From positions 128,001-192,000 of the forward strand of contig CAXXTH010000011.1 in assembly GCA_963668025.2 (NCBI GenBank): DNA of 64,000 bases, in the 5' to 3' direction. Made by a program: the position numbers and the translations under genes. This DNA is from Candidatus Hydrogenedentota bacterium (GTDB taxonomy: Bacteria; Hydrogenedentota; Hydrogenedentia; Hydrogenedentales; SLHB01). The notes beneath the pieces are model-generated. The model saw only the letters and a program-made list of their open reading frames with translations, did not search any database and had not been told where the DNA came from. Each line of letters begins with the position of its first letter. Positions within the stretch are counted from its first letter, which is position 1. Of this stretch, positions 43,470 through 56,806 are shown piece after piece.

Positions 43470-43758
43470 TCGATAATCCTCTATCAGATCAATCACACGC
43501 ATTAAGAATACCCCAGCGAGGCTTTGATGCTCCAGTTCCATTTTGACAGGATGGCCCAATATCCAGTAAAGCACAATCCTTAAAAAATGGCGGCGCTTCG
43601 TTCAAAAAAACGGCGATGTTATTGAATCGTCCACCTCTTAAAATGCGCCATAAAATTTGCTTTTACATGTCTTTTGCATTTTTAGAGTTATTAAGGTATC
43701 ATGAAGTAAAGGGGGCGAAGAGTTTTATCCAGAAAAATTTTTGGATAGGAAGCGAGCC

Positions 43759-44217
43759 GTGCCCTTAAAATTGCGAATACCGCCTCATCATTTCAACATC
43801 CGGAACCAGGATGGCGTCACGCTTGTTGAAATCGTCATTGCCTCGCTTATCCTTACCGTAGGCCTTGTCGCACTGCTAAGCGCAACGGTAGACGTGGGCA
43901 AAAGCCGGGCCTTAATAGAACAAGAGGAAATGGCCTCTTCCGTGCTGGCGAGCACGGCGGAAGTGTTGCGGGGAGCGGATCTCGAACAGGCCGCTCGGGG
44001 CAACTTAATAATCCCTCAATTGTTGGGAGATTCCCAATCCATCTCATTCGCTTACCTCAATTCCGCCGGAATGCGAGTGCCTTTAGCCGCCGCGGCAGGC
44101 GAAACGTTTTCTGCACAAAACTTCCCTAATCCATTAAATGTAGAAATCATTCTTTCGTGGAGAGATGTGAGCAGCCGTCCATTAAGCCGGCGCCTCACCG
44201 TTCTTTTAGGAAGGTAG
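43759..44217 (+). CDS. Type IV pilin-like protein (PilV-like)
   Basis: Class III signal G|VTLVEIVIA; GTG start with AGGA SD (ORF open from 43741). Confidence 0.8.
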   Translation: MPLKLRIPPHHFNIRNQDGVTLVEIVIASLILTVGLVALLSATVDVGKSRALIEQEEMASSVLASTAEVLRGADLEQAARGNLIIPQLLGDSQSISFAYLNSAGMRVPLAAAAGETFSAQNFPNPLNVEIILSWRDVSSRPLSRRLTVLLGR

Positions 44218-44221
44218 CACC

Positions 44222-44791
44222 ATGAAAAAAAATGGCTTCTCCCTAGTCGAGTTAACCGTATCGATTAGCATTATGCTGATTATTTCGGCTGCCCTTTTTG
44301 GTTTTTCCATAGCGGTGGGCCAAGCTACCCGCTCCCAGCAAGCGAAAGTCACCGCCACGGACGATGCGCGCCAAGCGATATTAGTAGCGATAAGGGAAAT
44401 CCGCCAATCCGCTTTTTCTTCCATTAATTGGGGTTCGCTTCCGGCAAACACCGTGCAATACCGCATAGCGCTAGATGCCGATAACAATGGCCTTGCGGTC
44501 GATTCCCAGGTGAGGCTCGAATTGAGCGCAGTTCGGACGATAAGCCCAGATTTTGAAGATATTAACAACGATGGCATCACCGCCCGCCAGCTCATTATGA
44601 CCGATGGGCTCCAGACGCAAGTATTGTGCAACACCCTTCGCGTTTCAACAAGCGGAGCTGCCGAAGATGAAGGCGTCTGGTTTGAACAAAATGGCGCTGG
44701 ACTTCGCATCACCGTGCAAACAGAAAGCGGCAGCGTGAATGATATCCCGATGCCTTGCAGGCTGGTTGAATTCGTAATCCCGAGGAACTAA
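44222..44791 (+). CDS. Type IV pilin-like protein (PilW-like)
   Basis: MKKNG|FSLVELTVS N-methylation motif. Confidence 0.85.
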   Translation: MKKNGFSLVELTVSISIMLIISAALFGFSIAVGQATRSQQAKVTATDDARQAILVAIREIRQSAFSSINWGSLPANTVQYRIALDADNNGLAVDSQVRLELSAVRTISPDFEDINNDGITARQLIMTDGLQTQVLCNTLRVSTSGAAEDEGVWFEQNGAGLRITVQTESGSVNDIPMPCRLVEFVIPRN

Positions 44792-44794
44792 AAC

Positions 44795-46463
44795 ATGCGC
44801 CGATCTCGCCAATCCAATCAAGGAAGCGCGCTGCTGCTCGCCACCCTCTTTCTGTTTGTCGCCATTCTACTAATGAGCGCCATTGCGATGCGTGTGGTGC
44901 GTCATAAGCGGCATGTCGATGCCTATGAAGAATTCACGGAATGCTTTACGGGAGCGGAGGCAGGCATTTCCGCTGCGAAGCTGTCCATCGAGACAGGTGG
45001 CGATGGAGCAATTGGATTAGGTTCATGGACCCCCGCCGATGCGGGAGAGACGCCTTTCCCCGATCTCAATGATGAGCGGCTCACGCCTAGTGAAATTGGC
45101 CTTCCACCTATTACCCGGTATGCGGCGTACACGATTAATTGGTCGGATGATGATGTGGATAATAATGGCGATGGTGTGATTGACGGGGCAAACGAGCAAT
45201 GGACATACACCATTTATTCCGTGGCGAACTGTGGAGCCACTACGCGATGGCTGGAAACCATCTACCGCGGCATGAATGTGAACGTCTGGCAGAATGCTAT
45301 CTTTGGCGGAACCGGCCAGATAGGCGGGCTTATCAATGGCAATGTCAGCATCCATGGCTCTGTTCATTTATTAGGCAACAATATCCTCGAAGGCGGCGTA
45401 GCTGTGACGGCCCTAGACCTGAGCGGAACCAGCCTTATTCACAACAATTATACGGGCATGCCCGCTGCTCTGGCTAGCCGGGTGCCCGCCCTCCCAACAG
45501 CGTCATTTGGAGGAAAAAACGTTTATACGCTGGAAGCAAAGCTGCGCGTTAAAAATGGATTGGTGGGCCTTTCGGGCAATTCCGAAATTGGAGAGCCGGA
45601 TTCCGCCCTGAATACGATTAAAGAAACGATGGATGGCACCTATGTAAACGACGGATGGACCGGCACCGCCGTAGTGGATGATGGAAACCGGGGCGATCCA
45701 AAGTCCGTCTATAGCGATAACGGATGGGATGAAGTATACGATCTGGGAGATCGCGTTCCTTTTCCCATTCTTGATGATGACTGGCGGGATCCCGTGACAG
45801 GCGCCGGGGTGCTTTATACCACTGGCACTCGAAATTACCAGCATGATGAATACTTTACTGAAAAATTGGCTGGTGCCGCCTACACCGGAAATATGACCAT
45901 CGACACATCAACAAATTTTTACTATAACGCCACGCGCCCAGCCGACGCCGATCCCACGCACCGCACATCCACGGATGATTATGTTTACTTCAATGCCAGC
46001 ACGAATAAGATGGAGATTAATGGACAGATAGTAATCAATGGCGACCTTGAAATGAAAGGCAAGGGCAATGACACCACCATCTATTATACGGGGCGGGCCG
46101 CCTTTCTAGTGAATGGCAATGTCTCACTCGACACGAATCTGCTCACAGTGAACAGCGATGGAAGCACAGCCAACAGTTTCCCCGTGAAAAACATTATTGG
46201 AATCATGGCCCGGAATTCCATGGTGGTAGGCTCCACGGCGCAGCTCACCTTGATGGGCGCTTTTTATGCCCAAAACACGGTCAAAAGCACGAAGCAAACG
46301 ATCACGATAGGAACATTTGTATCAAATTACTTCGATATGGGCACCAACGTACCAGAGATTTATCAAGTTCCCGAATTAGCGGATAACTTGCCGCTTGGAA
46401 TGATTGGGGGACTATCCGATTCTCTGCCTTGACCAGCTCTCCTGGCGGGAAATGGGAATATGA
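44795..46463 (+). CDS. Large PilX-like minor pilin; as read it stops at 46432 because of a +1 G in the run at 46406-46410
   Basis: QG|SALLLATL (no Glu5) and AEAG motif; removing one G gives ...GDYPILCLDQLSWREMGI* with ATGA overlap to the next gene. Confidence 0.82.
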
Positions 46464-46996
46464 ACCGAAGATTTTTGTTCGAGTTTTTGCATGATAACTG
46501 GTATCTGGCTGCCGCATTTGTGGTGTGTGTCGTATTGGTGGTCTATAAAGCCGCCACCCCGAATCCAGAGCAGCCTCCTGCCCTTGTCGCAACACGGCAA
46601 GCCGTTTCCAACACGCGTACTTCTTCCCAAACTGAAAACACCTACGAAAACCAGATCAAAAAGGACGCGCTACAAACCATTAATGCACACCGCAAACGCC
46701 TCGACGCACAAACGAATCCAGAAGAAGCGCCTGTTCTTTTAGCTGCCATGGGAAATCTATATCGGAATAAATTGAGTGATTACAGGCAAGCCGCTTTTTG
46801 TTACGAGCGCATCATTCAAGACTATCCAGAATCTCCCCAGTGTACGGATGCCTTTCTCGGATTGGCGACATGCTATGAACAAATGGGGGAAGTCCTCAAA
46901 TGCAATGAAACCCTCTGGAAAATGATGAAAGCCTACCCAGAAACCTCTCAAGAATATGCCTATGCAAGGGCAAAACTGGAGGGCCGAACACCATAG
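46460..46996 (+). CDS. Membrane-anchored TPR protein
   Basis: N-terminal TM; TPRs AMGNLY...YERIIQDYPES...LGLATCYE. Confidence 0.8.
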   Translation: MNRRFLFEFLHDNWYLAAAFVVCVVLVVYKAATPNPEQPPALVATRQAVSNTRTSSQTENTYENQIKKDALQTINAHRKRLDAQTNPEEAPVLLAAMGNLYRNKLSDYRQAAFCYERIIQDYPESPQCTDAFLGLATCYEQMGEVLKCNETLWKMMKAYPETSQEYAYARAKLEGRTP

Positions 46997-47050: not shown

Positions 47051-47079
47051 TTGACATCTGCTTAAATTTTCAGTATACT
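47051..47079 (+). promoter_or_regulatory. Near-consensus sigma70 promoter TTGACA-N17-TATACT
   Basis: Read directly; SD AAGGAGG and ATG 47108 follow. Confidence 0.75.
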
Positions 47080-47107
47080 CCTTTTGGTAATCAAAAGGAG
47101 GCGAACC

Positions 47108-49717
47108 ATGAAGATGGCGGAATTGCTGCGGTTTGGGGCGGCCCCCGAGATCATCAGCCTCTGGCAGGAACGCGAAAGCGAACACTTGCTGCCCCTGCAG
47201 GAAATGGCGGTGCGGCAGCATGGGCTTTTCGAACGCAAGAACCTGCTCATCCAAGCCCCCACGACATCCGGGAAGACCTTCATCGGCGAAATGGCGGCGC
47301 TTCACACGGCGCTCAAGCGCAAGAAAGTGGTTTACCTCCTCCCGCTCAAGGCCCTGGCGGCGGAAAAATGGGCCGGTTTCCAAGAAAAGTACGCCGCCTA
47401 TGGCATCAAAACCATCATCTCCACCCGGGATCACCGGGAATTTGACGAGGATTTGGAGAAGGGGAATTTCTCCATCGCCGTGGTCGTGTATGAAAAACTG
47501 GCGCAGCTTTTGGTGCGGAGGCCGGAGCGGATCAACGAGCTCGAACTGGTGATCGCCGATGAGCTCGAAATTCTGTCGGACCCCGAGCGCGGGGCCATGG
47601 CGGAATTGCTGCTGACCCGGCTGCTGCTGGCGGGCGTGCGCTTGATTGGATTGTCGGCGGTCATCGGCGGCACGGAACGCCTAGCGCGATGGATGAACGC
47701 CGAAGCGGTGCTTTTTGAACGGCGGCCCATCGAATTGCGTTATGGCGTCCTGCATGAAGGCGTCTTCCGTTTCCGCACCTACAATGAATATGCGGAAGCG
47801 GAGGAAAAGCTGGCGGACTGCGAATCGGAATCGCCGTGGGAGATCCTTTCGGAAAACCTGCACGCCTTCGTCAAGGCGGGCGAGCCATGCATCATCTTCG
47901 TGAAAGACCGCTACGAATCGCGCCGGGGCGCGGCCTTGCTGGCCCATCGGCTTGATTTGCCGCCCGCCACAACTGCTATCGAGGCGCTCCGCCGCCTCGA
48001 CGCGACCCATGCCCGCGATGAGCTCTCCGAATTACTGAACCTCGGCGTGGCCTTTCATAACGCTGATTTGTCGCCCGAGGAGCGCCAGGTGATTGAAACG
48101 GCGTTCCGGTCCGAGGAACTCAAGGTGCTCGTCTCCACCAGCACCCTCGCCGCAGGCATGAATTTGCCCGCGCAAAATGTCTTCATTACCGCCGACAAAT
48201 GGCAATACGACACCCGCTTCGGCATGCCCTGGAAAACGCCCATCTTGCGGGCGGAATACGAAAACATGGGCGGGCGCGCGGGACGGTATGGCTCGGGAAA
48301 GCCCTTCGGGCGCTCGATCCTCGTGGCGGCGACGCCTTTCGACCACGAGACCCTCTGGCGGCGCTACGTCGAGGGCGAACGGGAGGCCATCGAGCCGCGC
48401 CTGGGCCAGGGGCCTCTCGAGGACCACGTCCTCCGGCTCGTAGCCTCAAGCGCATGCCGCACGGAGGAGGAATTAGTCCGCTTTTTCAATCACACACCCA
48501 CAGGGATGTGGGTATGGGCGGAATCCCTTTCACCGCAGGAAATCGAAGTGCGCGTGCGGACCGCCATCAACCGCGCCACGGATGCGGGGCTGCTCGCACC
48601 TGCCAATGAACAAGGCCATATTGAAGCCACGCCTTTCGGGTGGGCGGCGGCGTCCAAGGGGGTGTCGCTGGCCACGGCGCGCGAACTCGCGTCCTGGGTC
48701 CGCGAGTCGGAAACGCGCCTGTGGGGCGACATCGACCTCCTGCTCGCCGCCGCCCTGACGCCCGATGGCCGCATGGTGCAAGTCTCCCTTACGACGCGGG
48801 AATATGACCATGCCGATTATCCAGAACAATTGCGGCAGGGAACGCGCAACGAGGAGCTTTCTTCCGATGTGCCCCTCAACCGCCTGCGCAATTGCACCCT
48901 CATGCCCTTCTTCAATGAAGTGCGCGCCATCAAGATAGCCCTCTTTCTCCAGGATTGGCTCAACGAAGAATCGATTTACGATATCGAAGAGCGCTATCAG
49001 ACCCTCTTGGGCCAAATTCGCGGCGCGGCGGACCAACTAAGCTGGCTCGTGGACGCCACGGCAGCCATCGCGCGGGCTTTCGGCGCGCATGAAGCATTTA
49101 TCAGGCGCATCGAACTCCTGGCCGAACGCACCGCGCGAGGACTGCGGGCGGAAACCTTGCCGCTGGCGCGGCTCGCGGGGCCTATTCTGTCCCGCGCAGC
49201 CCTCGTGTCCATGGCCTCCGCCGGGCTTCACACCGCCGAAACCCTTGCGCAGACGCCGCCGGAGCGCCTAAAACACTGGATGCCTTTAAGCGCCGCCCGG
49301 CGCATTGCGGCGTGGGCGCTCGAATCCACTGGGCTGAAACCGGAAACCGCCATGCCCATTCCTCGGGATGAACCGGTGTTGATTGTCGATGGCCGCAGGC
49401 CCTGCCAGATCGAGTTCGAGGGGAAAGTGGTGCCTCTGCAGGATAAACAATACCGAATGATGGAACTATTGGCGGCGCATCCGGGCGAATGCGTGTTCTA
49501 CGAGGCCCTGCAAGACGCCCTGTGGGGCGAAACCGCCGTGGAGCCAAACCAGATCCACGTCCAGAAACGCAGGCTTCTCGAACGCATTCACGAGTCCGCT
49601 CCCGAATACGCCCGCTATATCCGCACCATTCCCCGGCGCGGCCTCTTGTTGGACCTCACGCCTGAACAAGTCCGCTTCACCGCATCACGGCAAATCCTGT
49701 GCGCCGCCGTGGGATGA
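47108..49717 (+). CDS. Ski2/Hel308-like SF2 helicase fused to a C-terminal OmpR/PhoB-type winged helix
   Basis: APTTSGKT, PLKALA, DELE, LSAV, TSTLAAGMNLPA and MGGRAGR motifs; C-terminal LQDKQYRMMELLAAHPGE...LWG...IRTIPRRG. Confidence 0.88.
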   Translation: MKMAELLRFGAAPEIISLWQERESEHLLPLQEMAVRQHGLFERKNLLIQAPTTSGKTFIGEMAALHTALKRKKVVYLLPLKALAAEKWAGFQEKYAAYGIKTIISTRDHREFDEDLEKGNFSIAVVVYEKLAQLLVRRPERINELELVIADELEILSDPERGAMAELLLTRLLLAGVRLIGLSAVIGGTERLARWMNAEAVLFERRPIELRYGVLHEGVFRFRTYNEYAEAEEKLADCESESPWEILSENLHAFVKAGEPCIIFVKDRYESRRGAALLAHRLDLPPATTAIEALRRLDATHARDELSELLNLGVAFHNADLSPEERQVIETAFRSEELKVLVSTSTLAAGMNLPAQNVFITADKWQYDTRFGMPWKTPILRAEYENMGGRAGRYGSGKPFGRSILVAATPFDHETLWRRYVEGEREAIEPRLGQGPLEDHVLRLVASSACRTEEELVRFFNHTPTGMWVWAESLSPQEIEVRVRTAINRATDAGLLAPANEQGHIEATPFGWAAASKGVSLATARELASWVRESETRLWGDIDLLLAAALTPDGRMVQVSLTTREYDHADYPEQLRQGTRNEELSSDVPLNRLRNCTLMPFFNEVRAIKIALFLQDWLNEESIYDIEERYQTLLGQIRGAADQLSWLVDATAAIARAFGAHEAFIRRIELLAERTARGLRAETLPLARLAGPILSRAALVSMASAGLHTAETLAQTPPERLKHWMPLSAARRIAAWALESTGLKPETAMPIPRDEPVLIVDGRRPCQIEFEGKVVPLQDKQYRMMELLAAHPGECVFYEALQDALWGETAVEPNQIHVQKRRLLERIHESAPEYARYIRTIPRRGLLLDLTPEQVRFTASRQILCAAVG

Positions 49718-50202: not shown

Positions 50203-51946
50203 TCATTGTACATTACTTGCCTGTTCCGTATGGAATTCGTCCAACTTCGCATAATCTTGGAGCGATAACCAAGGGCGCGCCCGCTCCCGCAGGGCTTCCC
50301 AAGAATCTGGCGGTGAAACGCGCGCCAGCCGCACCCATGCTTCGACCATGCCAGGCGTACGAAAAACGGAGGCTTCCAAGCATTCGCGGGCTTCCTCGTT
50401 TGCGCCACGGGCCTGGGCCAGCGCTCCAATCAACAAATACAGCGGACCCGTATCGAGCCCATGCAACGCCATGCGCGCCTGCGCCTCCGCTTCATCATAT
50501 TGCTTCGCCCGCGCCAGCGCGATAGCATAGTTATGCCGGCCCAAGGCGGAAGGCCAAAGGTGGTCCATTGCTCGGATATACGAAGGCAGAGACGGCCCGC
50601 CCATCCAAAAACTCGATATCCGCCGACCGCAATAAAAAACTAGGCCAAATGCCCGCCCACGCCATGAACGCGGCAAGCGCTATCGTTGCGCCAGGAATCA
50701 TGATAGCCGCCTTTCGTGATTCGGCGCGAACCGGAGCATCACGCGCCAGCAACATCCCAGCAAACAGCACCCCCGCCAAAGCATGTGGCGCGCTATGGAA
50801 AGGGAAATTGGCCAAAGAGAAAATCAGCAGCACCAGCAGCACCAGCCATTCCGGCCCGCGCCGTCGCGACAGCCGCGCCAGCATCCAACACGCACACAGG
50901 ACACCCAGAACACCCGCCTCGGCGGCAAGTTCAAGCGGGTCCGAATGGGCATGCTGGACATGGCGGTCCGTCCAATACGGGTTTGTTCCATCCTCGTCAT
51001 GCAGCGCCTCGCCCATATACAAGGGGCTCCAGTATAAATAATTCCCCAAACCTACGCCCGCCGCCGGATGCGCCGCTATCATCCGCAACGTTCCATCCCA
51101 CATCCACAATCGTGCACGGACTCCCGTGCTTTCCAATGTGGCCGCCCCTTTCACCCGCTCCATGAAACGCGCAGGCTGCAGGGCCACCAGCCCAGTTATC
51201 ACACCCGCCAGTAATAAAACCAACAAGCCCGCACGGCGCATGGAAATGGGCCGGGGGAAAGCGGCGGCCCCCAAGCCCACGCTCGCCGCGATCCAGGCCG
51301 AACGGCATTCAGATAACGCCACCGCCGCCGCCATAAGCAATACGCCCGCGGCTGCAATCACGCTGAGCCGCTGGCCGCGTAAAAAACGATATACGAAAAG
51401 GGGTAGAGCCATGGCCGCATAGCCGCCAAGCAGATCCGCATTCCCAAAAACGGAATACATGCCTGGCGCAAGCGAGGGCCTATCGGGAAATAGAGGGGAG
51501 GCAAGCCCCGCGCGCTGCAACAGAAAAAGCAGTGACACCAGGACAGCGGAAATCAAAAAAGCATTTGTAAATCGATACCGCCAGCACGCATCCCGAAGCA
51601 GATCAAACGCAAGCGCCCCAGCCAAAAGCAACAGCGCGCCGCGCGCCAAGCTTTCCGCCGCATAGGTGCGAACCGTTGCGCCTCCCGCCAAGAGATGGAA
51701 TACCAGCACCCACAGGAGAAACAGCCAAACCGGGCCAAACGCCCAAATGCCCTGCCACCGCATGCGCCCGCGCAGAAGCGCCATCGTAGAGGCCATTGCC
51801 AAGGCGAAGTAAAGGACGGCTTCTTTGGCGTGCAGAAACGACAACAAATGAAAAGAATAGGGCACGGCGCACAATGCGGCACCCACGCACAACACATGTC
51901 CGCGCGCATATTCCAGTCTTTCCCATTCTATTCGTTTCACACACAA
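50203..51946 (-). pseudogene. O-antigen ligase-family protein with TPR tail, split by a +1 frameshift near 50590-50605 (possibly a sequencing error)
   Basis: SVFGN, HPAAGVGLGNY and HAHSDPLE in 50531-51946; TPR part in the second frame (50203-50676); removing one base gives LDGRPSLPSYIRA. Confidence 0.75.
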
Positions 51947-52045: not shown

Positions 52046-55000
52046 ATGCACAAAAAGCTGCTTTCCGGGCTGATGCCCATTTTGCTGGCCGCCTCCATCG
52101 CCAGCGCACAAGAACCGTTGATCAACATGGTTGACCGGGGTTATGTCGCCGACTGGGTTTTCTGCGGCCCCTTCACGGCCGATGCCGATGGCGGCATCAT
52201 AACGGCGCTTGAACAAAGCGCCTCGCCATTAGGCGCTCGCGATTACCTCGAATCCATGGGAGGCGTAAGCCGCGCCCGTCCTCGAGCAGGCAGCGCCGTT
52301 ACCGGACCAGATGGCGCTTTCACCTGGAACGCCCTGCAGGCGGACAGCGAATTGCTCGACCTTACAGAAACCTTCAAAGACCAGCGCGAAGGCGTCATGT
52401 ATTTCGCTTTCTCCTGCTATAATCCGCTGCAAGCAACGGTCTATATCGATTTGCAGACCCCTCTTGGCGCACGAATGTGGATCAATGGCTTCCCTGCCGT
52501 GGATATACAACCCGCTTCTTTCGAGAATGCAGGCGTCAACCGCTTTCTTGCGCGCGTCCGCAGCGGTGAAAACTGGATCATCATTGAAGCCCCATTCGCA
52601 TCATTTCCCGCTCTCGCCCAAGCCACCGGGATCCCAGAAGACCGTTTGCGCGCACGCGGATTCCCGAACCGCCCCCTGCTGCCCGCCAATAGCAGCTTCG
52701 AAATCGCCATGCGGATACTGCCCGTGCGGGCTATCGGTGATGTCGCTTACATTCCTATACTCGAGCCCCAGCGCTCCTTCAGCGACGAAAATGGCGTTTT
52801 AAAGCAAGGCGCACTGCTCACGTTTTTCAATCCGGGCAAAGAAGCTTCATTCCCCATTTCCATCCAGACCACGGTGCAAGGCCAATCCCCTTCGCCGGAA
52901 CAGGTGGTCCTGCCGATTCCCCCACAGACTCAATATGAAGCCTTATTGGCTATCCCATTGGGAAGCGCCGCGCCCGGCCAGACCCTGGATATAAAGGTGC
53001 TGCTTACCACCAAACGGAACCAAGAAGAGTTCACGGCTCCCCTGGCCGCGGGCCAGCCGCCCACGAAGGGGCACGTATATGTCGTGCCCGGCGCTACCTA
53101 TCATCCGGGGTATCCAGAAGAACAACGCGAAGCCATGGCGCGCCGCCTTGCGGAGCTGGATCAACAGATGGCGCTGGCGGGCGCGGAACGTGATTATGGC
53201 TTTTATCTGGGGGATCTGCCGTATTGGAAGAGCTATCTCGCCACGCGCGAAACGGCCCGCGAGGCGCTCCCTGCTTTGGCCGCTGCCGGCCGTAGCGCGC
53301 CCCAAGCGGGATATGGCATGCTGGACGAACGAATCGTCGGAGGCGAACTGCTGGCGCGCAATTGGGCGTATGGCCGCATTGCCGCCGAACGCCTGCTCGG
53401 TTCTGGCGGCGGCTGTTACTACGCATGGGACGTCCCCGCGATTTGCCCACAAACGCCTCAATTGCTGGCCAAGAGCAATATTAGCGGCATTTTGACGGAT
53501 TTGCCAGTGCAAGGCGTTGCACCACTGTTTTGGCAGGTCTCGCCAGATAAAACGCGCTTGCTGATGCGCCGGAAACAACCGGCCCCTGGGCCGGGCTCCG
53601 TGGACACCTTGCGCCAAATGGCCGATGTGCAGCGCCGGCAGCTCCTGCAAATGGGGCTTGATACCGATGTCTTCGCCCCTATCAGCTCGGAACCGCCTCC
53701 CGAACCGTATTATCTCGGCGCTTGCCATCCATTGCGGATCGGCGTGCCCTCCATCACTGTTGAAGGCTCTGGCGGTGCGGCTTTCTTTGAGGAGACGCTT
53801 GCGGCGGTGCGGCGCGGCGGCGTGCATCTGCCTTATTCCGGCCGAATGCTCAACACCAGCCAGCCTGGCGCGCTTCTTTCGCAGCCCGCGCTCAAGCGCG
53901 CCCATGGACTCGTCGAAAACAAGGTCATTACAGCGGAAAAACTCGCCACACTCGCGGCGCTGGTGGGCGCGCCGTATCCAGAAACCCAGCTTGATCACGC
54001 TTGGCGGCAATTACTGTATACCGGCTCACCGGACCGGCTCGGTTTCCCCGGCGCTCCGCGCATTTATTGCGACGCCCTATCGTCCTACCGGCGCGCCGCC
54101 GCTGATGCGCACCGCGCCGCCGCAAACGCAATGGACTATATCGCCCAACGCATTAACACCCAATCTTCCGCGCCCAAAGAACCCAAACCCAGCCAGGCCC
54201 TAGTCGTGTTCAACCCCTGTTCGTGGATGCGGACCGATGTGTGCCGCGCCGCCGTGGCTATTGACGCCAACGCGGGCCTTATTTTGATGGACGAGAATGC
54301 AAATACCGTCCCGTATGCCATTGCGGAAGCGCCCGAACCGCCCAGTACGATGGCGCTGATCGAGTTTGTTGCCAGCGATGTGCCGCCTTTAGGTTACCGA
54401 ACCTATTACGCCGCTCCCGCGGGAGCGCTGCCTCCCAATACCGAAGCTTCTGGCGCTTCCATTGAGAACGAATCGCTGCGCGTCCTCCTCAATCCCGAAG
54501 AGGGGGGAGGAGCCATCAGCCTGCTGTATAAACCCACCGGCCGTGAATTCGCCAGCAAGCTCATGAACGATGTCGCCGCAATCGAAGAAGATCCGCAACG
54601 CACCAATGGCGGACGCGACTTATGGACAACCTCTCGCATTACACGCACCAGTGACGTCCCAGGCGATATTACGGTCATGAAGAATGAGATTTTTGAAAGG
54701 GCTACCATTTCCGCGCCTTTGGCGGGGGGCGTGGCCATACGCGAGATGACCCTATATAAAGGCGTGCCTCGCGTGGATTGCACGCTGCGGTGTTCCGGGA
54801 TATCCGTGCAAAATGCCCTGCTGGCCATTCTGTCGGGATGCTTTTCCGTCGGAGATGTAGCGGTATTCGGCGAACGATATGGCGCGTCCGTAGGCCGAAA
54901 GAGCGCGTCCATCATGGATTTGCGCACCGCTGGCGCGGATAACCCTTCCGCAACCGCCGCCCAGCCGGCATATGAATGGTCTGCCTTGACTCCAGGCGAT

Positions 55001-56806
55001 TATCTCCGGTTCAGTGAAGAAATCGCCGTGCCTTTTGGCCCGGCGGATATCATATACGGGGAAGGTGAAGCATTTGTTCGTTCGGCCGAAATGCTCGTCG
55101 AGGCCCTGGCGAGCCGGGGCATTCCGTCAGCCATCCTGCCCGAGTCCGGACCACAGAAAAGCGCCGTGTGGAGCGATTCCACCGAGTTTGAAAATTTAGA
55201 TGATGATCTGCGCTATGGCGCTGCATTCCGCATTGTCTTGGGCAATGGCGGCGACACCAAACTATGCGCCCGGCTTGTCGCCACACTGCCCGAGAGCGTG
55301 GCGCGCGATTTCAACCAGCATGCCCCCGAAGGTGCGCTATTGCTGCTGCAAGACCCGCAAGTGCCGGAAGGCATTCCTCCTGTCCCCACGCTGTTGCTAT
55401 CCGGCTCCACGCCCGCCGTTACCCAAAAACTAGCGGAAACAGTGGCTACGGCGCTGAAGGCTTCTGGATGGGTTCCTGGCTCGAAATGGGAGTATGCCGG
55501 TTCAAACAACGCCCCGCTGGCGGATGGCGGCATTGCAATGCTTCATGCGGGCTCCGCTTTGCATAATATCTCTCAAAACGGTGTGATGATGCTTGGCCTG
55601 GCGCATGGAAGCACATGGGAAAACGCCGCGGATGCACTCGATCTCGATCCAGCCGCTGACTTTACTTTTAACTATTCCATTTATCCTTTCCTTGGAGATT
55701 GGCGCAAGGGAGGCGTCGTACGGCAAGCCCAAGCGTTCAACGAACCGCTTCTCGCTGCCGTCACAGGCATCCATCCGGGTACGTTGCCGCTGCGCCAGGC
55801 CTTCCTGTCCGTTTCCGGCCAAGAATTCATCATTACCGCAGTGAAACCATCCGGATATCCCTCCGCCCGCATGAGCGTGCATCCCTTACCGCCCCGGGCA
55901 GGTTTCACCATCCGTGGATATGAGACGACCGGGCAAGACTGGACGGGCACGTTGCAAGCATTGTCGCCCATCACCCGCGCGGCGCAACGCAGCCTGCTCG
56001 AAGACGGCGGGCAAAGCCTGGCGCCGAATGGGCGCGATTTGACCTTTACCGCACGGGGATTCTCCATAGAAACGCTCACCATCGCATTGGAAGGCTTGCC
56101 AGTTGCGCCCGGCTCGTCATCCATGCCGCCTGAGAAACCGCAGCCGCCGGTATATTCACGCTATTGGCTGCACAACACCGGCGCTGCCCCGGAAGGATTT
56201 GAAGATATCAGCATTTTGCTCGAAGGAGATTTATCCAAAGCAGGAAGCCCTGTCTCGATTATGGTGGCCAATAATACGACAGACGCTTCTATTGACGGCT
56301 CCGTTTCTCTCTCTGCTTCAACCGGTTGGACCATATCGCCAGAACTGTTCAGTTATCATCTCGAACCTGGCGGCGTCACCACCCAAAAACTGGTCGTATT
56401 GCGTTCCACTGGTGAAGACACCCAAAGCGGAGGCATTATAGCGGAAACTTCCTATGCGGGTAGAACATACCGGGATGTGCTTGAACTCAATCCGCGCGAG
56501 TGCATTCTTTTCGCGGCATTGGAGGGAGATACGGTTAATGCCACGGTATCCAATCCGGGCGTATTGCCTGCGGAAGGTTCTATTGAATTAATCGTGCCGC
56601 CCGAGTGGTGGCCGGAACTATCGGGCAAAGGCCCCAGCGAACCCGTGCAAACCCGGGTCAAAGTCGCGCCTCAAGGAACCCAATCCATCCCCTTTTCGCT
56701 GCCGCCTGGCGATGCGCCTCCCTGGATCATCGTCAAACTTGCCGCCAACGGCCATGTGGCGTATACAAAAGTCGAGCCCTTCCCAGGACTCCTCCCACTG
56801 GAATGA
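52046..56806 (+). CDS. Large secreted GH38 alpha-mannosidase-like protein lacking Zn ligands, with accessory beta domains
   Basis: Signal peptide; GH38-like blocks DERIVGGELLARN, PQTPQLL, AWRQLL, VVFNP, VPPLGYRTY and IENE; Ig/NEW3-like C-terminus. Confidence 0.8.
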   Translation: MHKKLLSGLMPILLAASIASAQEPLINMVDRGYVADWVFCGPFTADADGGIITALEQSASPLGARDYLESMGGVSRARPRAGSAVTGPDGAFTWNALQADSELLDLTETFKDQREGVMYFAFSCYNPLQATVYIDLQTPLGARMWINGFPAVDIQPASFENAGVNRFLARVRSGENWIIIEAPFASFPALAQATGIPEDRLRARGFPNRPLLPANSSFEIAMRILPVRAIGDVAYIPILEPQRSFSDENGVLKQGALLTFFNPGKEASFPISIQTTVQGQSPSPEQVVLPIPPQTQYEALLAIPLGSAAPGQTLDIKVLLTTKRNQEEFTAPLAAGQPPTKGHVYVVPGATYHPGYPEEQREAMARRLAELDQQMALAGAERDYGFYLGDLPYWKSYLATRETAREALPALAAAGRSAPQAGYGMLDERIVGGELLARNWAYGRIAAERLLGSGGGCYYAWDVPAICPQTPQLLAKSNISGILTDLPVQGVAPLFWQVSPDKTRLLMRRKQPAPGPGSVDTLRQMADVQRRQLLQMGLDTDVFAPISSEPPPEPYYLGACHPLRIGVPSITVEGSGGAAFFEETLAAVRRGGVHLPYSGRMLNTSQPGALLSQPALKRAHGLVENKVITAEKLATLAALVGAPYPETQLDHAWRQLLYTGSPDRLGFPGAPRIYCDALSSYRRAAADAHRAAANAMDYIAQRINTQSSAPKEPKPSQALVVFNPCSWMRTDVCRAAVAIDANAGLILMDENANTVPYAIAEAPEPPSTMALIEFVASDVPPLGYRTYYAAPAGALPPNTEASGASIENESLRVLLNPEEGGGAISLLYKPTGREFASKLMNDVAAIEEDPQRTNGGRDLWTTSRITRTSDVPGDITVMKNEIFERATISAPLAGGVAIREMTLYKGVPRVDCTLRCSGISVQNALLAILSGCFSVGDVAVFGERYGASVGRKSASIMDLRTAGADNPSATAAQPAYEWSALTPGDYLRFSEEIAVPFGPADIIYGEGEAFVRSAEMLVEALASRGIPSAILPESGPQKSAVWSDSTEFENLDDDLRYGAAFRIVLGNGGDTKLCARLVATLPESVARDFNQHAPEGALLLLQDPQVPEGIPPVPTLLLSGSTPAVTQKLAETVATALKASGWVPGSKWEYAGSNNAPLADGGIAMLHAGSALHNISQNGVMMLGLAHGSTWENAADALDLDPAADFTFNYSIYPFLGDWRKGGVVRQAQAFNEPLLAAVTGIHPGTLPLRQAFLSVSGQEFIITAVKPSGYPSARMSVHPLPPRAGFTIRGYETTGQDWTGTLQALSPITRAAQRSLLEDGGQSLAPNGRDLTFTARGFSIETLTIALEGLPVAPGSSSMPPEKPQPPVYSRYWLHNTGAAPEGFEDISILLEGDLSKAGSPVSIMVANNTTDASIDGSVSLSASTGWTISPELFSYHLEPGGVTTQKLVVLRSTGEDTQSGGIIAETSYAGRTYRDVLELNPRECILFAALEGDTVNATVSNPGVLPAEGSIELIVPPEWWPELSGKGPSEPVQTRVKVAPQGTQSIPFSLPPGDAPPWIIVKLAANGHVAYTKVEPFPGLLPLE

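Follow-up and report, generated by a model that had tools for sequence, protein, structure and literature searches.

A Hel308-type helicase with an OmpR/PhoB-type winged helix and a putative LexA operator in its promoter in Hydrogenedentota

What would a Hel308-type helicase do in a bacterium when its motor motifs are altered and a transcription-factor domain is fused to its end? This question is raised by one gene of a Candidatus Hydrogenedentota bacterium, located at 47108..49717 (+) in a stretch of 64,000 nucleotides (contig CAXXTH010000011.1 of assembly GCA_963668025.2, positions 128,001 to 192,000), which is called the window here. The coding sequence specifies 869 residues and a stop codon, and its product, P0001, was recognised as a Hel308-like helicase with a C-terminal winged helix from its open reading frame (ORF), Pfam domains, alignment, an AlphaFold2 (AF2) model and Foldseek searches. 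An earlier reading of the letters alone (the original prediction) had placed three roles side by side: a site-targeted translocase, a nucleic-acid-sensing transcription factor, and a defence or repair protein. Of these options, repair is the one most strengthened, since a conserved LexA-type operator lies in the promoter, and a role as a regulator is less likely.

The ORF spans 47084..49717 (+). Its start codon is the ATG at 47108, and a ribosome-binding site, AAGGAGG (47095..47101, +), can be read directly 6 nucleotides upstream of it. A promoter scan found TTGACA-17-TATACT at 47051-47079 (+), which agrees with the consensus at 11 of 12 positions. The -35 hexamer TTGACA lies at 47051..47056 (+; consensus cTTGACA over 30 orthologous loci), and the -10 hexamer TATACT, also supported by the orthologue alignment, lies at 47074..47079 (+). 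The upstream gene, which encodes a small tetratricopeptide repeat (TPR) protein, ends at 46996, and the downstream neighbour, a 234-residue ORF without family matches, is convergent, so the helicase gene is monocistronic. The transcription unit thus consists of the helicase gene and its own promoter-operator, and the monocistronic gene with a strong promoter of its own, as originally proposed, is borne out.

The spacer of this promoter is filled by a 16-base-pair palindrome of the CTG-N10-CAG type, CTGCTTAAATTTTCAG (47058..47073, +), which is a putative LexA operator by its position and conservation. An exact CTG-N10-CAG was found at the same promoter position in 29 of the 30 orthologous loci of the order, and the 30th carried it with one mismatch. 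The same composite was present in 10 of 11 further loci from a sample of the phylum, so that TTGACA-n-CTG-N10-CAG-TATACT is retained in 39 of 41 orthologous loci overall, with a coding identity across the operator-bearing loci of 52-65%. When the 30 loci were anchored on the box, the promoter consensus was cTTGACAnCTGAanAtaTnTTCAGTATAcT, and no further conserved element was found within 25 nucleotides upstream or 45 nucleotides downstream of the box. The promoter therefore shows no hint of another operator through which the gene could regulate itself.

The operator can be compared with that of the lexA gene of the same genome (C14:87945-88550), where the box CTGAAAATGAATTCAG lies at C14:87884, two bases past the -10 hexamer; the boxes at the two genes, CTGCTTAAATTTTCAG and CTGAAAATGAATTCAG, are of matching type. 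Across the order, CTG-N10-CAG was found within 200 nucleotides upstream of lexA in 27 of 31 loci. Boxes of the form CTG, an A/T-rich centre and TTCAG directly follow the -10 hexamer in 26 of the 31, and two remaining loci carry GTGAAAA...TTCAG. Three further lexA loci (L047, L049, L074) look like extra lexA copies, and their promoters (TTGACTTTCGG...) are without CTG-N10-CAG. Judged from these sites, LexA would bind the helicase operator, and the gene would hence be induced by DNA damage.

More distant relatives can be examined in the same way. Both GAAC-N4-GTTC and CTG-N10-CAG are known types of LexA box. In an Armatimonadia relative, the helicase promoter reads TTGACAAT-CGAACACGTGTTCG-ATATACT, and its own lexA has CGAACAGGTGTTAC between TTGACA and TACAAT; both genes of that genome share a box of the form CGAAC-N4-GTT[CA]. 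For a Sumerlaeota relative, the box TAGAACATGTGTTCTAG of the helicase gene and the box TAGAACACCAGTTCTA of lexA both follow TAGAAC-N4-GTTCTA. As far as such sites can be read, these two relatives appear to be independent support for a link to the SOS response, made with a different type of operator.

A weight matrix built from 29 helicase boxes gave 50 hits at 12 bits or more when the genome was scanned. Among the best intergenic hits, the helicase scored 21.2 bits, lexA 17.5 bits and a Y-family polymerase ORF 18.2 bits; a box 238 nucleotides away from a gene for a DHH/DHHA1 protein scored 20.2 bits. Several individual sites can be recorded here. The best box of the genome, CTGAATAGATTTTCAG (23.3 bits), lies 40 nucleotides before the start of a 171-residue ORF without a Pfam family (C5:1286-1801, -), on a contig of 3.6 kb. 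A near-box, TTGAAAAAATGTTCAG (17.4 bits), lies 178 nucleotides upstream of a 530-residue reverse transcriptase (RVT_1; C12:25469-27064, -), which from its sequence may be a damage-controlled retroelement. The Y-family polymerase (IMS) ORF, with the box TTGAAAATATGTTCAG at its start, has 201 residues (C10:1318826-1319431, +), and this short length suggests a split or mis-started gene. The start of recA (C8:138583, L002) lies just downstream of a tRNA-like sequence.

The protein behind this promoter has the fold of archaeal Hel308. Pfam places DEAD at residues 31-186, Helicase_C at 304-395, Helicase_dom4_arc at 564-678 and Trans_reg_C at 772-845. The AF2 model, based on an alignment of 72 sequences, reached a mean predicted local distance difference test (pLDDT) of 93.9 and a predicted template modelling (TM) score of 0.86; pLDDT fell below 50 solely at residues 748-752, at the junction of domain 5 and the tail, and in the last six residues. 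The top Foldseek matches were Hjm 2zj8 (E 1.3e-41) and Hel308 9b15, 2va8 and 2p6r, with E values of about 1e-41 to 1e-38 and TM scores, normalised to the target, of 0.87-0.91, followed by the Pol theta helicase domain. In a phmmer search of solved structures, Pyrococcus furiosus Hjm 2zj2 was best (E 2.2e-72 over residues 15-721), and the other nearest solved relatives were S. solfataricus Hel308 2va8 and A. fulgidus Hel308 2p6r; identity to these archaeal Hel308/Hjm structures is 25-28%. Model, fold search and Pfam thus agree on the five-domain Hel308 ring (RecA1, RecA2, winged helix, ratchet and helix-hairpin-helix), as had been proposed from the letters. The NCBIfam Hel308 equivalog models score below their cut-offs (PRK02362, 356.9 against 887; helicase_Hel308, 275.3 against 1200).

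Along the gene (all on the + strand), the RecA1 and RecA2 motor domains take up about residues 1-410 (47108..48337), limits that are approximate and follow from Pfam DEAD and Helicase_C and from the alignment to Hjm and Hel308. They hold motif I (APTTSGKT, 47255-47278), motif II (DELE, 47558-47569), motif III (SAV, 47654-47662) and motif VI (ENMGGRAGR, 48260-48286). The internal winged-helix domain 3 and the ratchet domain 4 follow at about residues 411-680 (48338..49147; Pfam Helicase_dom4_arc and Foldseek, limits again approximate). Domain 5, a helix-hairpin-helix placed by alignment to Hjm, covers about residues 681-745 (49148..49342). A linker of about residues 746-765 (49343..49402), which contains the low-confidence stretch of the model, leads to the OmpR/PhoB-type winged helix-turn-helix at about residues 766-858 (49403..49681), within which the Trans_reg_C match corresponds to 49421-49642.

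Residue-level alignment to Hjm and Hel308 confirmed the three unusual motifs that had been noticed. At motif II, ADELEIL stands opposite ADEIHLI and LDELHYL, so the DExH form is missing; at motif III, LSAV faces LSAT in place of the usual SAT; and at motif VI, EYENMGGRAGR faces EVHQMLGRAGR and EYKQMSGRAGR and does not follow Q-x-x-GRAGR. In other superfamily 2 (SF2) helicases, the H, T and Q residues of these three motifs couple hydrolysis to unwinding. In domain 5, LSRAALV (49187-49207, +) stands opposite RRRARAL of Hjm, which reduces the Arg-Ala-Arg (RAR) motif to R-A-A. The RAR motif had been called absent; the second arginine is indeed lost, but the first, R696, is retained and at least 90% conserved in alignment A1, so this wording was slightly too strong. 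The RAR motif of domain 5 is named in the accessible part of a preprint on Pol theta (10.1101/2023.01.20.524915). Other motor positions are kept. Q31, G55, K56, R390 and R393 are invariant over 72 family members, and D151, E152, G635 and W646 are at least 90% conserved, W646 lying where the alignment places the ratchet helix of Hel308. Since these members come from several phyla and hardly vary at the ATP site, P0001 is expected to be an active nucleoside triphosphatase.

Are the motif changes a peculiarity of one genome? A word-indexed search scored 7999 candidates and returned 821 proteins at E <=0.001, of which the best 120 (the query included) were aligned. These are 56-64% identical and 835-931 residues long, and, where a source is named, they come from Hydrogenedentes/Hydrogenedentota, plus one labelled Nitrospiraceae. 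Motif II is DE[LV]E in all 120 close homologues and motif III is SAV in 119 of them; the first residue of motif VI is N in 111 and S in 9. This constancy at motif II rules out decay to a pseudogene, and since the motifs and the gene recur across homologues and phylum genomes, a private oddity of this genome is ruled out as well. Conservation within these orthologues differs among domains. Mean pairwise identity is 72.9% in RecA1, 68.7% in RecA2, 60.2% in the winged helix of domain 3, 59.3% in ratchet domain 4, 58.3% in the C-terminal winged helix and, as the lowest value, 37.7% in domain 5.

The wider family places these motifs in a different light. When 1.84 billion cluster representatives were searched exhaustively with HMMER, 12,627 matched at E <=0.001 and 1,128 at E <=1e-30, and the best 150 representatives (29-57% identical) were aligned with the query as 151 rows. 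The fourth residue of motif II was Q in 129 rows, H in 7, E in 6 and D in 4, with 2 other residues and 3 gaps; motif III was SAV in 106 and SAT in 7; and the first residue of motif VI was N in 132 and Q in 2. Archaeal Hel308 controls had H, T and Q at motifs II, III and VI in 18 of 18 translated proteins. In a FastTree tree of 162 rows rooted on archaeal Hel308, a single transition from H/Q to x/N divides the archaea from the bacterial family. P0001 sits in a clade of 11 rows (local support 98; 8 E/N, 2 E/S, 1 D/N), and this acidic clade is nested among 107 Q/N rows. The simplest order of changes starts from H-T-Q, passes to Q-V-N at the root of the bacterial family and ends with an acidic residue in the Hydrogenedentota-type clade. 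The acidic fourth residue of motif II is a trait of a sub-clade, and the motif VI asparagine and SAV mark a large, mostly DExQ bacterial family. The original prediction had taken the E/N pair for a compensatory third solution to the covariation of motifs II and VI. The pair is real and conserved; the specific compensation is not supported, as the asparagine is family-wide and mostly faces Q. Since it is found opposite Q, E, D and H, and so tolerates all four, the idea is upheld only in part.

The C-terminal domain is the other unusual feature of P0001. Trans_reg_C matches with 33.1 bits against a cut-off of 26.2, residues 772-845 covering profile positions 1-74 of 77, and the doubt that the C-terminus might not resemble this family can be put aside. 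When the last 120 residues were searched on their own, the best solved match was ToxR (E 5e-5), followed by response regulators, CadC and OmpR; all 22 solved sequences at E <0.01 were of OmpR/PhoB type (ToxR, CadC, OmpR, VicR, WalR, PcoR). DSSP assigned to the AF2 model strands within 758-776, helices at 779-790, 798-806 and 814-830, and a hairpin at 838-848, which is the beta-sheet, three helices and beta-hairpin expected for such a domain. Profile and solved relatives therefore sustain the claim of an appended OmpR/PhoB-like winged helix. Across 120 orthologues, conservation reaches at least 90% in the recognition-helix segment VE.NQ.HFQK. No phospho-receiver accompanies the domain, as Pfam gave no Response_reg match in P0001, the N-terminus of which is the helicase. 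The winged helix presumably binds duplex DNA.

How far does the tail extend through the family? A precomputed Trans_reg_C match exists for 114 of the 120 closest homologues, and a profile of the Hydrogenedentota tail detects the winged helix in 76 of the 151 rows. Among 56 long rows without a match to this tail profile, 53 were scanned with Pfam (three were omitted for size) and none showed Trans_reg_C at E <=0.001. The extensions of the 56 rows cluster as 35, 14 and 4 members and three singles. With hhalign, the 35-member cluster aligned modestly to the winged helix (87 columns, probability 43%, E 2.5e-4), with strands and helices arranged alike, which makes a divergent winged helix likely there. 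The modest hhalign match is also the best lead for the C-terminal extension of P0130, for which an Atlas search peaked at 0.86, under the 0.9 taken as meaningful. From these profiles, the winged-helix tail can be regarded as a hallmark of the helicase family. Two singletons, found on one contig each, are either real fusions or artefacts of assembly or gene calling: P0139 (1067 residues) has a sigma-54 AAA+ activator domain (832-990) where the winged helix would be, and P0147 (1068 residues) has a histidine-kinase ATPase domain (HATPase_c, 972-1068) in that place.

The helicase gene is mostly single-copy. Whole-genome searches detected it in 38 of the 41 genomes from the same order, and in the phylum sample 74 of 81 genomes carry it (62 of 68 among those of good quality). 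One of the three misses in the order (G009) is a fragment at a contig end. In genome G002, which is 100% complete by markers, neither helicase nor lexA was detected with the queries used, and the two genes may have been lost together. There is no conserved neighbour in flanks of 1.5 kb, the most shared one occurring in 4 of 30 orthologous loci. On this distribution, the gene is near-core and stand-alone, and looks like a housekeeping gene rather than a mobile one. Among the matches listed, the named bacterial relatives come from Hydrogenedentota, Myxococcales/Myxococcia, Coatesbacteria, Smithellaceae, Armatimonadia, Zixibacteriota, Sumerlaeota, Hymenobacter, Gammaproteobacteria, Dehalococcoidia and others, and archaeal Hel308 comes next at 27-33% identity. 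A shorter subfamily can also be distinguished (L089, L093 from Hymenobacter, L095, L126, L149). Its proteins mostly have 740-801 residues (508 in L149), and motif II was read as DE[AV]Q in three of the five loci. Its genes have no intergenic promoter, since the frame upstream of them continues into the start of the helicase, an arrangement that points to an operon shared with the gene of another protein and to a different kind of biology.

The reading that we favour, with confidence somewhat above even, is that P0001 is a LexA-repressed, damage-induced Hel308-type repair motor with its tail as a DNA handle. In uninduced cells, a LexA dimer on the 16-base-pair palindrome in the spacer would block the near-consensus sigma-70 promoter; after damage, cleavage of LexA would permit strong transcription of the single helicase gene. 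The protein would retain the residues for ATP binding and hydrolysis, the region of the strand-separating hairpin and the ratchet helix of Hel308. It is predicted to be an active 3'-to-5' DNA motor whose loading sites would be the single-stranded DNA of gaps or stalled forks, the direction of movement being suggested by the fold and the catalytic residues. The flexibly linked OmpR-type winged helix would act as a tethered handle for duplex DNA, by which the motor is positioned or kept on its substrate. That the tail is such a handle, and not a classical gene regulator, is the least certain step.

Several points weigh against a damage-induced repair motor. recA has an imperfect box only, CTGAATAAACATTCAT (15.8 bits), which overlaps its first ATG, and several top matrix hits precede glycosidases, probably by chance. 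The bare CTG-N10-CAG pattern is common, with 15 occurrences in the window (13.3 expected) and 1077 in the genome, 37 of which have an A+T-rich centre. Because the bare pattern is not rare, the case for the operator rests on position and conservation. No recognisable box was found in 160 nucleotides, with two patterns, before the Myxococcales (L080) or the Zixibacteriota (L087) relative, although the Myxococcales lexA itself carries CTCGCCACATGTTCAG; the same search before the Coatesbacteria (L082) and Smithellaceae (L084) relatives also gave none. LexA binding, induction and enzymatic activity are all steps that we infer. A strongly conserved recognition helix would be expected for sequence-specific binding and fits a regulator better than an unspecific handle, and the altered H-T-Q positions could mean that the motor no longer unwinds.

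These last two points lead to a damage-gated transcription factor, in which the Hel308 core would be an ATP-dependent sensor of single-stranded DNA or damage, the winged helix would be the sequence-specific output for second-tier SOS genes, and the exchange of H-T-Q for E-V-N would make a switch out of a processive motor. The tail is a bona fide Trans_reg_C domain with the VE.NQ.HFQK segment kept, and it is better conserved than domain 5 (58.3% against 37.7% mean identity). All three coupling positions are non-canonical throughout the family, while the 18 archaeal controls all keep H, T and Q, and P0139 and P0147 bear other signalling outputs, sigma-54 AAA+ and HATPase_c, in place of the winged helix. 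However, these two proteins are the singletons with possible artefacts described above, no target sites are known for the winged helix, and the gene has neither a second conserved element in its own promoter nor conserved neighbours. All the motor residues, including the ratchet tryptophan W646, are conserved, and a mere sensor would not need them. We consider such a transcription factor rather unlikely. Its more specific form is more doubtful still: through the family-wide swap of H-T-Q to Q/E-V-N together with a weakened domain-5 brake, a formerly processive repair motor would have become an ATP-driven sensor of damaged or single-stranded DNA that gates a sequence-specific OmpR-type output, as a second-tier SOS transcription factor. 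If true, it would describe a one-component regulator with a helicase as its input domain, and the sigma-54 AAA+ and histidine-kinase fusions would be variations on this theme.

Two further explanations concern the substrate and the setting of the motor. OmpR/PhoB domains can contact RNA polymerase, and a Ski2-like RNA helicase that acts in RNA decay or removes R-loops could use its winged helix to touch the polymerase or DNA near transcription complexes; the RNA helicases Brr2, Mtr4 and Ski2 do appear as weaker matches in sequence and fold. In both respects, though, P0001 is closest to DNA helicases, namely Hel308/Hjm and the helicase domain of Pol theta, and the LexA-type operator points to the biology of DNA damage, which leaves this explanation with little probability. 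An antiphage helicase activated by DNA damage, Hachiman (HamB) or a related system, is again highly improbable. PADLOC HamB models match P0001 with up to 121 bits, HamB 8vx9 of the Protein Data Bank matches at E 8.8e-15, and HamB is described as functionally Hel308-like and DNA-damage-responsive in the accessible part of the Hachiman paper (PMC12278908). These matches are confined to the RecA domains (for example, 26-217 of 869 residues), whereas Hel308 models span 13-733 with 357 bits. No PADLOC defence family was hit in the two flanking ORFs, no conserved partner was found in 30 loci, and the gene is near-core and mostly single-copy in the phylum sample, unlike patchy defence genes.

The neighbourhood of the gene in the window can be described briefly. 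Pilin-like genes precede the TPR gene: two ORFs with a prepilin N-terminal methylation motif, followed by a 545-residue ORF without family matches, lie at 43741-46432 (+) and resemble genes for a pilus or pseudopilus. Beyond the convergent 234-residue ORF, there is a Wzy_C-type (O-antigen ligase-like) membrane protein (50531-51946, -) and then a glycosidase-like protein of 1586 residues (52046-56806, +), the hits of which to glycoside hydrolase family 38 (GH38) alpha-mannosidases are weak and under the Pfam cut-offs.

Bacteria lack Hel308 according to the accessible part of the Hachiman paper (PMC12278908). The gene described here encodes a Hel308-type protein with all five domains, is near-core in a bacterial phylum and belongs to a family spread over many phyla that include, among the matches listed, Myxococcota, Armatimonadota, Zixibacteriota, Sumerlaeota and Bacteroidota. 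In the literature searched, which left subscription journals and supplements outside reach, we found no description of a bacterial Hel308-type family, of the winged-helix fusion or of its SOS control, and thus no earlier characterisation of this architecture. The apparent SOS control offers a testable handle on the role of a Hel308-type motor at damaged DNA in bacteria. The three replaced coupling residues, together with the natural series of E, Q, H and D, provide a ready-made experiment on how ATP hydrolysis is linked to strand separation in SF2 enzymes. With a transcription-factor domain fused to it, the protein also makes one ask whether a sequence-reading module can target a helicase or let a helicase signal.

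Comparison with known systems helps to place the protein. In its accessible text, a HELQ/Hel308 review (2026, PMC13623763) places Ski2-like helicases in bacteria, archaea and eukaryotes alike and describes domain 5 as a brake. With archaeal Hel308/Hjm, P0001 shares the five-domain ring, motifs I, Ia and V, the motif VI arginines and the ratchet tryptophan. It differs in DELE, SAV, the motif VI asparagine, R-A-A and the extra OmpR-type tail; it is bacterial, stands behind a LexA-type operator and scores far below the equivalog cut-offs. HELQ and the helicase-like domain of Pol theta belong to the same fold class (Pol theta helicase domain 5aga, E 1.4e-34, TM 0.74 normalised to the target) and are motors related to DNA damage, but they are eukaryotic, keep DExH/Q, have other N- and C-terminal modules and are without the winged-helix tail. 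HamB, like P0001, is a bacterial Ski2-like helicase, which resembles Hel308 and responds to DNA damage in the available account (PMC12278908). Unlike HamB, which partners an adjacent HamA nuclease, P0001 matches in the RecA domains only and has no conserved neighbour, so neither the adjacent HamA gene nor the full-length HamB profile that mark this system are present. Mycobacterial Lhr is a bacterial, DNA-damage-inducible SF2 3'-to-5' translocase whose RecA and winged-helix domains resemble those of Hel308; its C-domain is unrelated to that of Hel308 and it is without the beta-hairpin, as far as the accessible part of its description goes (PMC5758891), whereas P0001 has Hel308 domain 4. The NCBIfam model of ligase-associated DEXH helicases, which is Lhr-related, scores 73.8 bits on P0001.

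The wider family of P0001, mostly DExQ (129 of 151 rows), can also be set beside DExQ-type SF2 motors such as Suv3, and Pfam DEXQc_Suv3 matches P0001 itself weakly (24.2 bits, below the cut-off of 27). Suv3 and Mfd are active DExQ-type motors, and by this analogy a fourth residue of motif II other than histidine would be compatible with an active motor; the domain architecture and biology of P0001 differ from theirs. To our knowledge, DExE does not occur in any characterised helicase. The tail, finally, resembles ToxR and CadC in that an OmpR/PhoB domain is used without a phospho-receiver, but in P0001 this winged helix is fused to a helicase and not to a membrane sensor.

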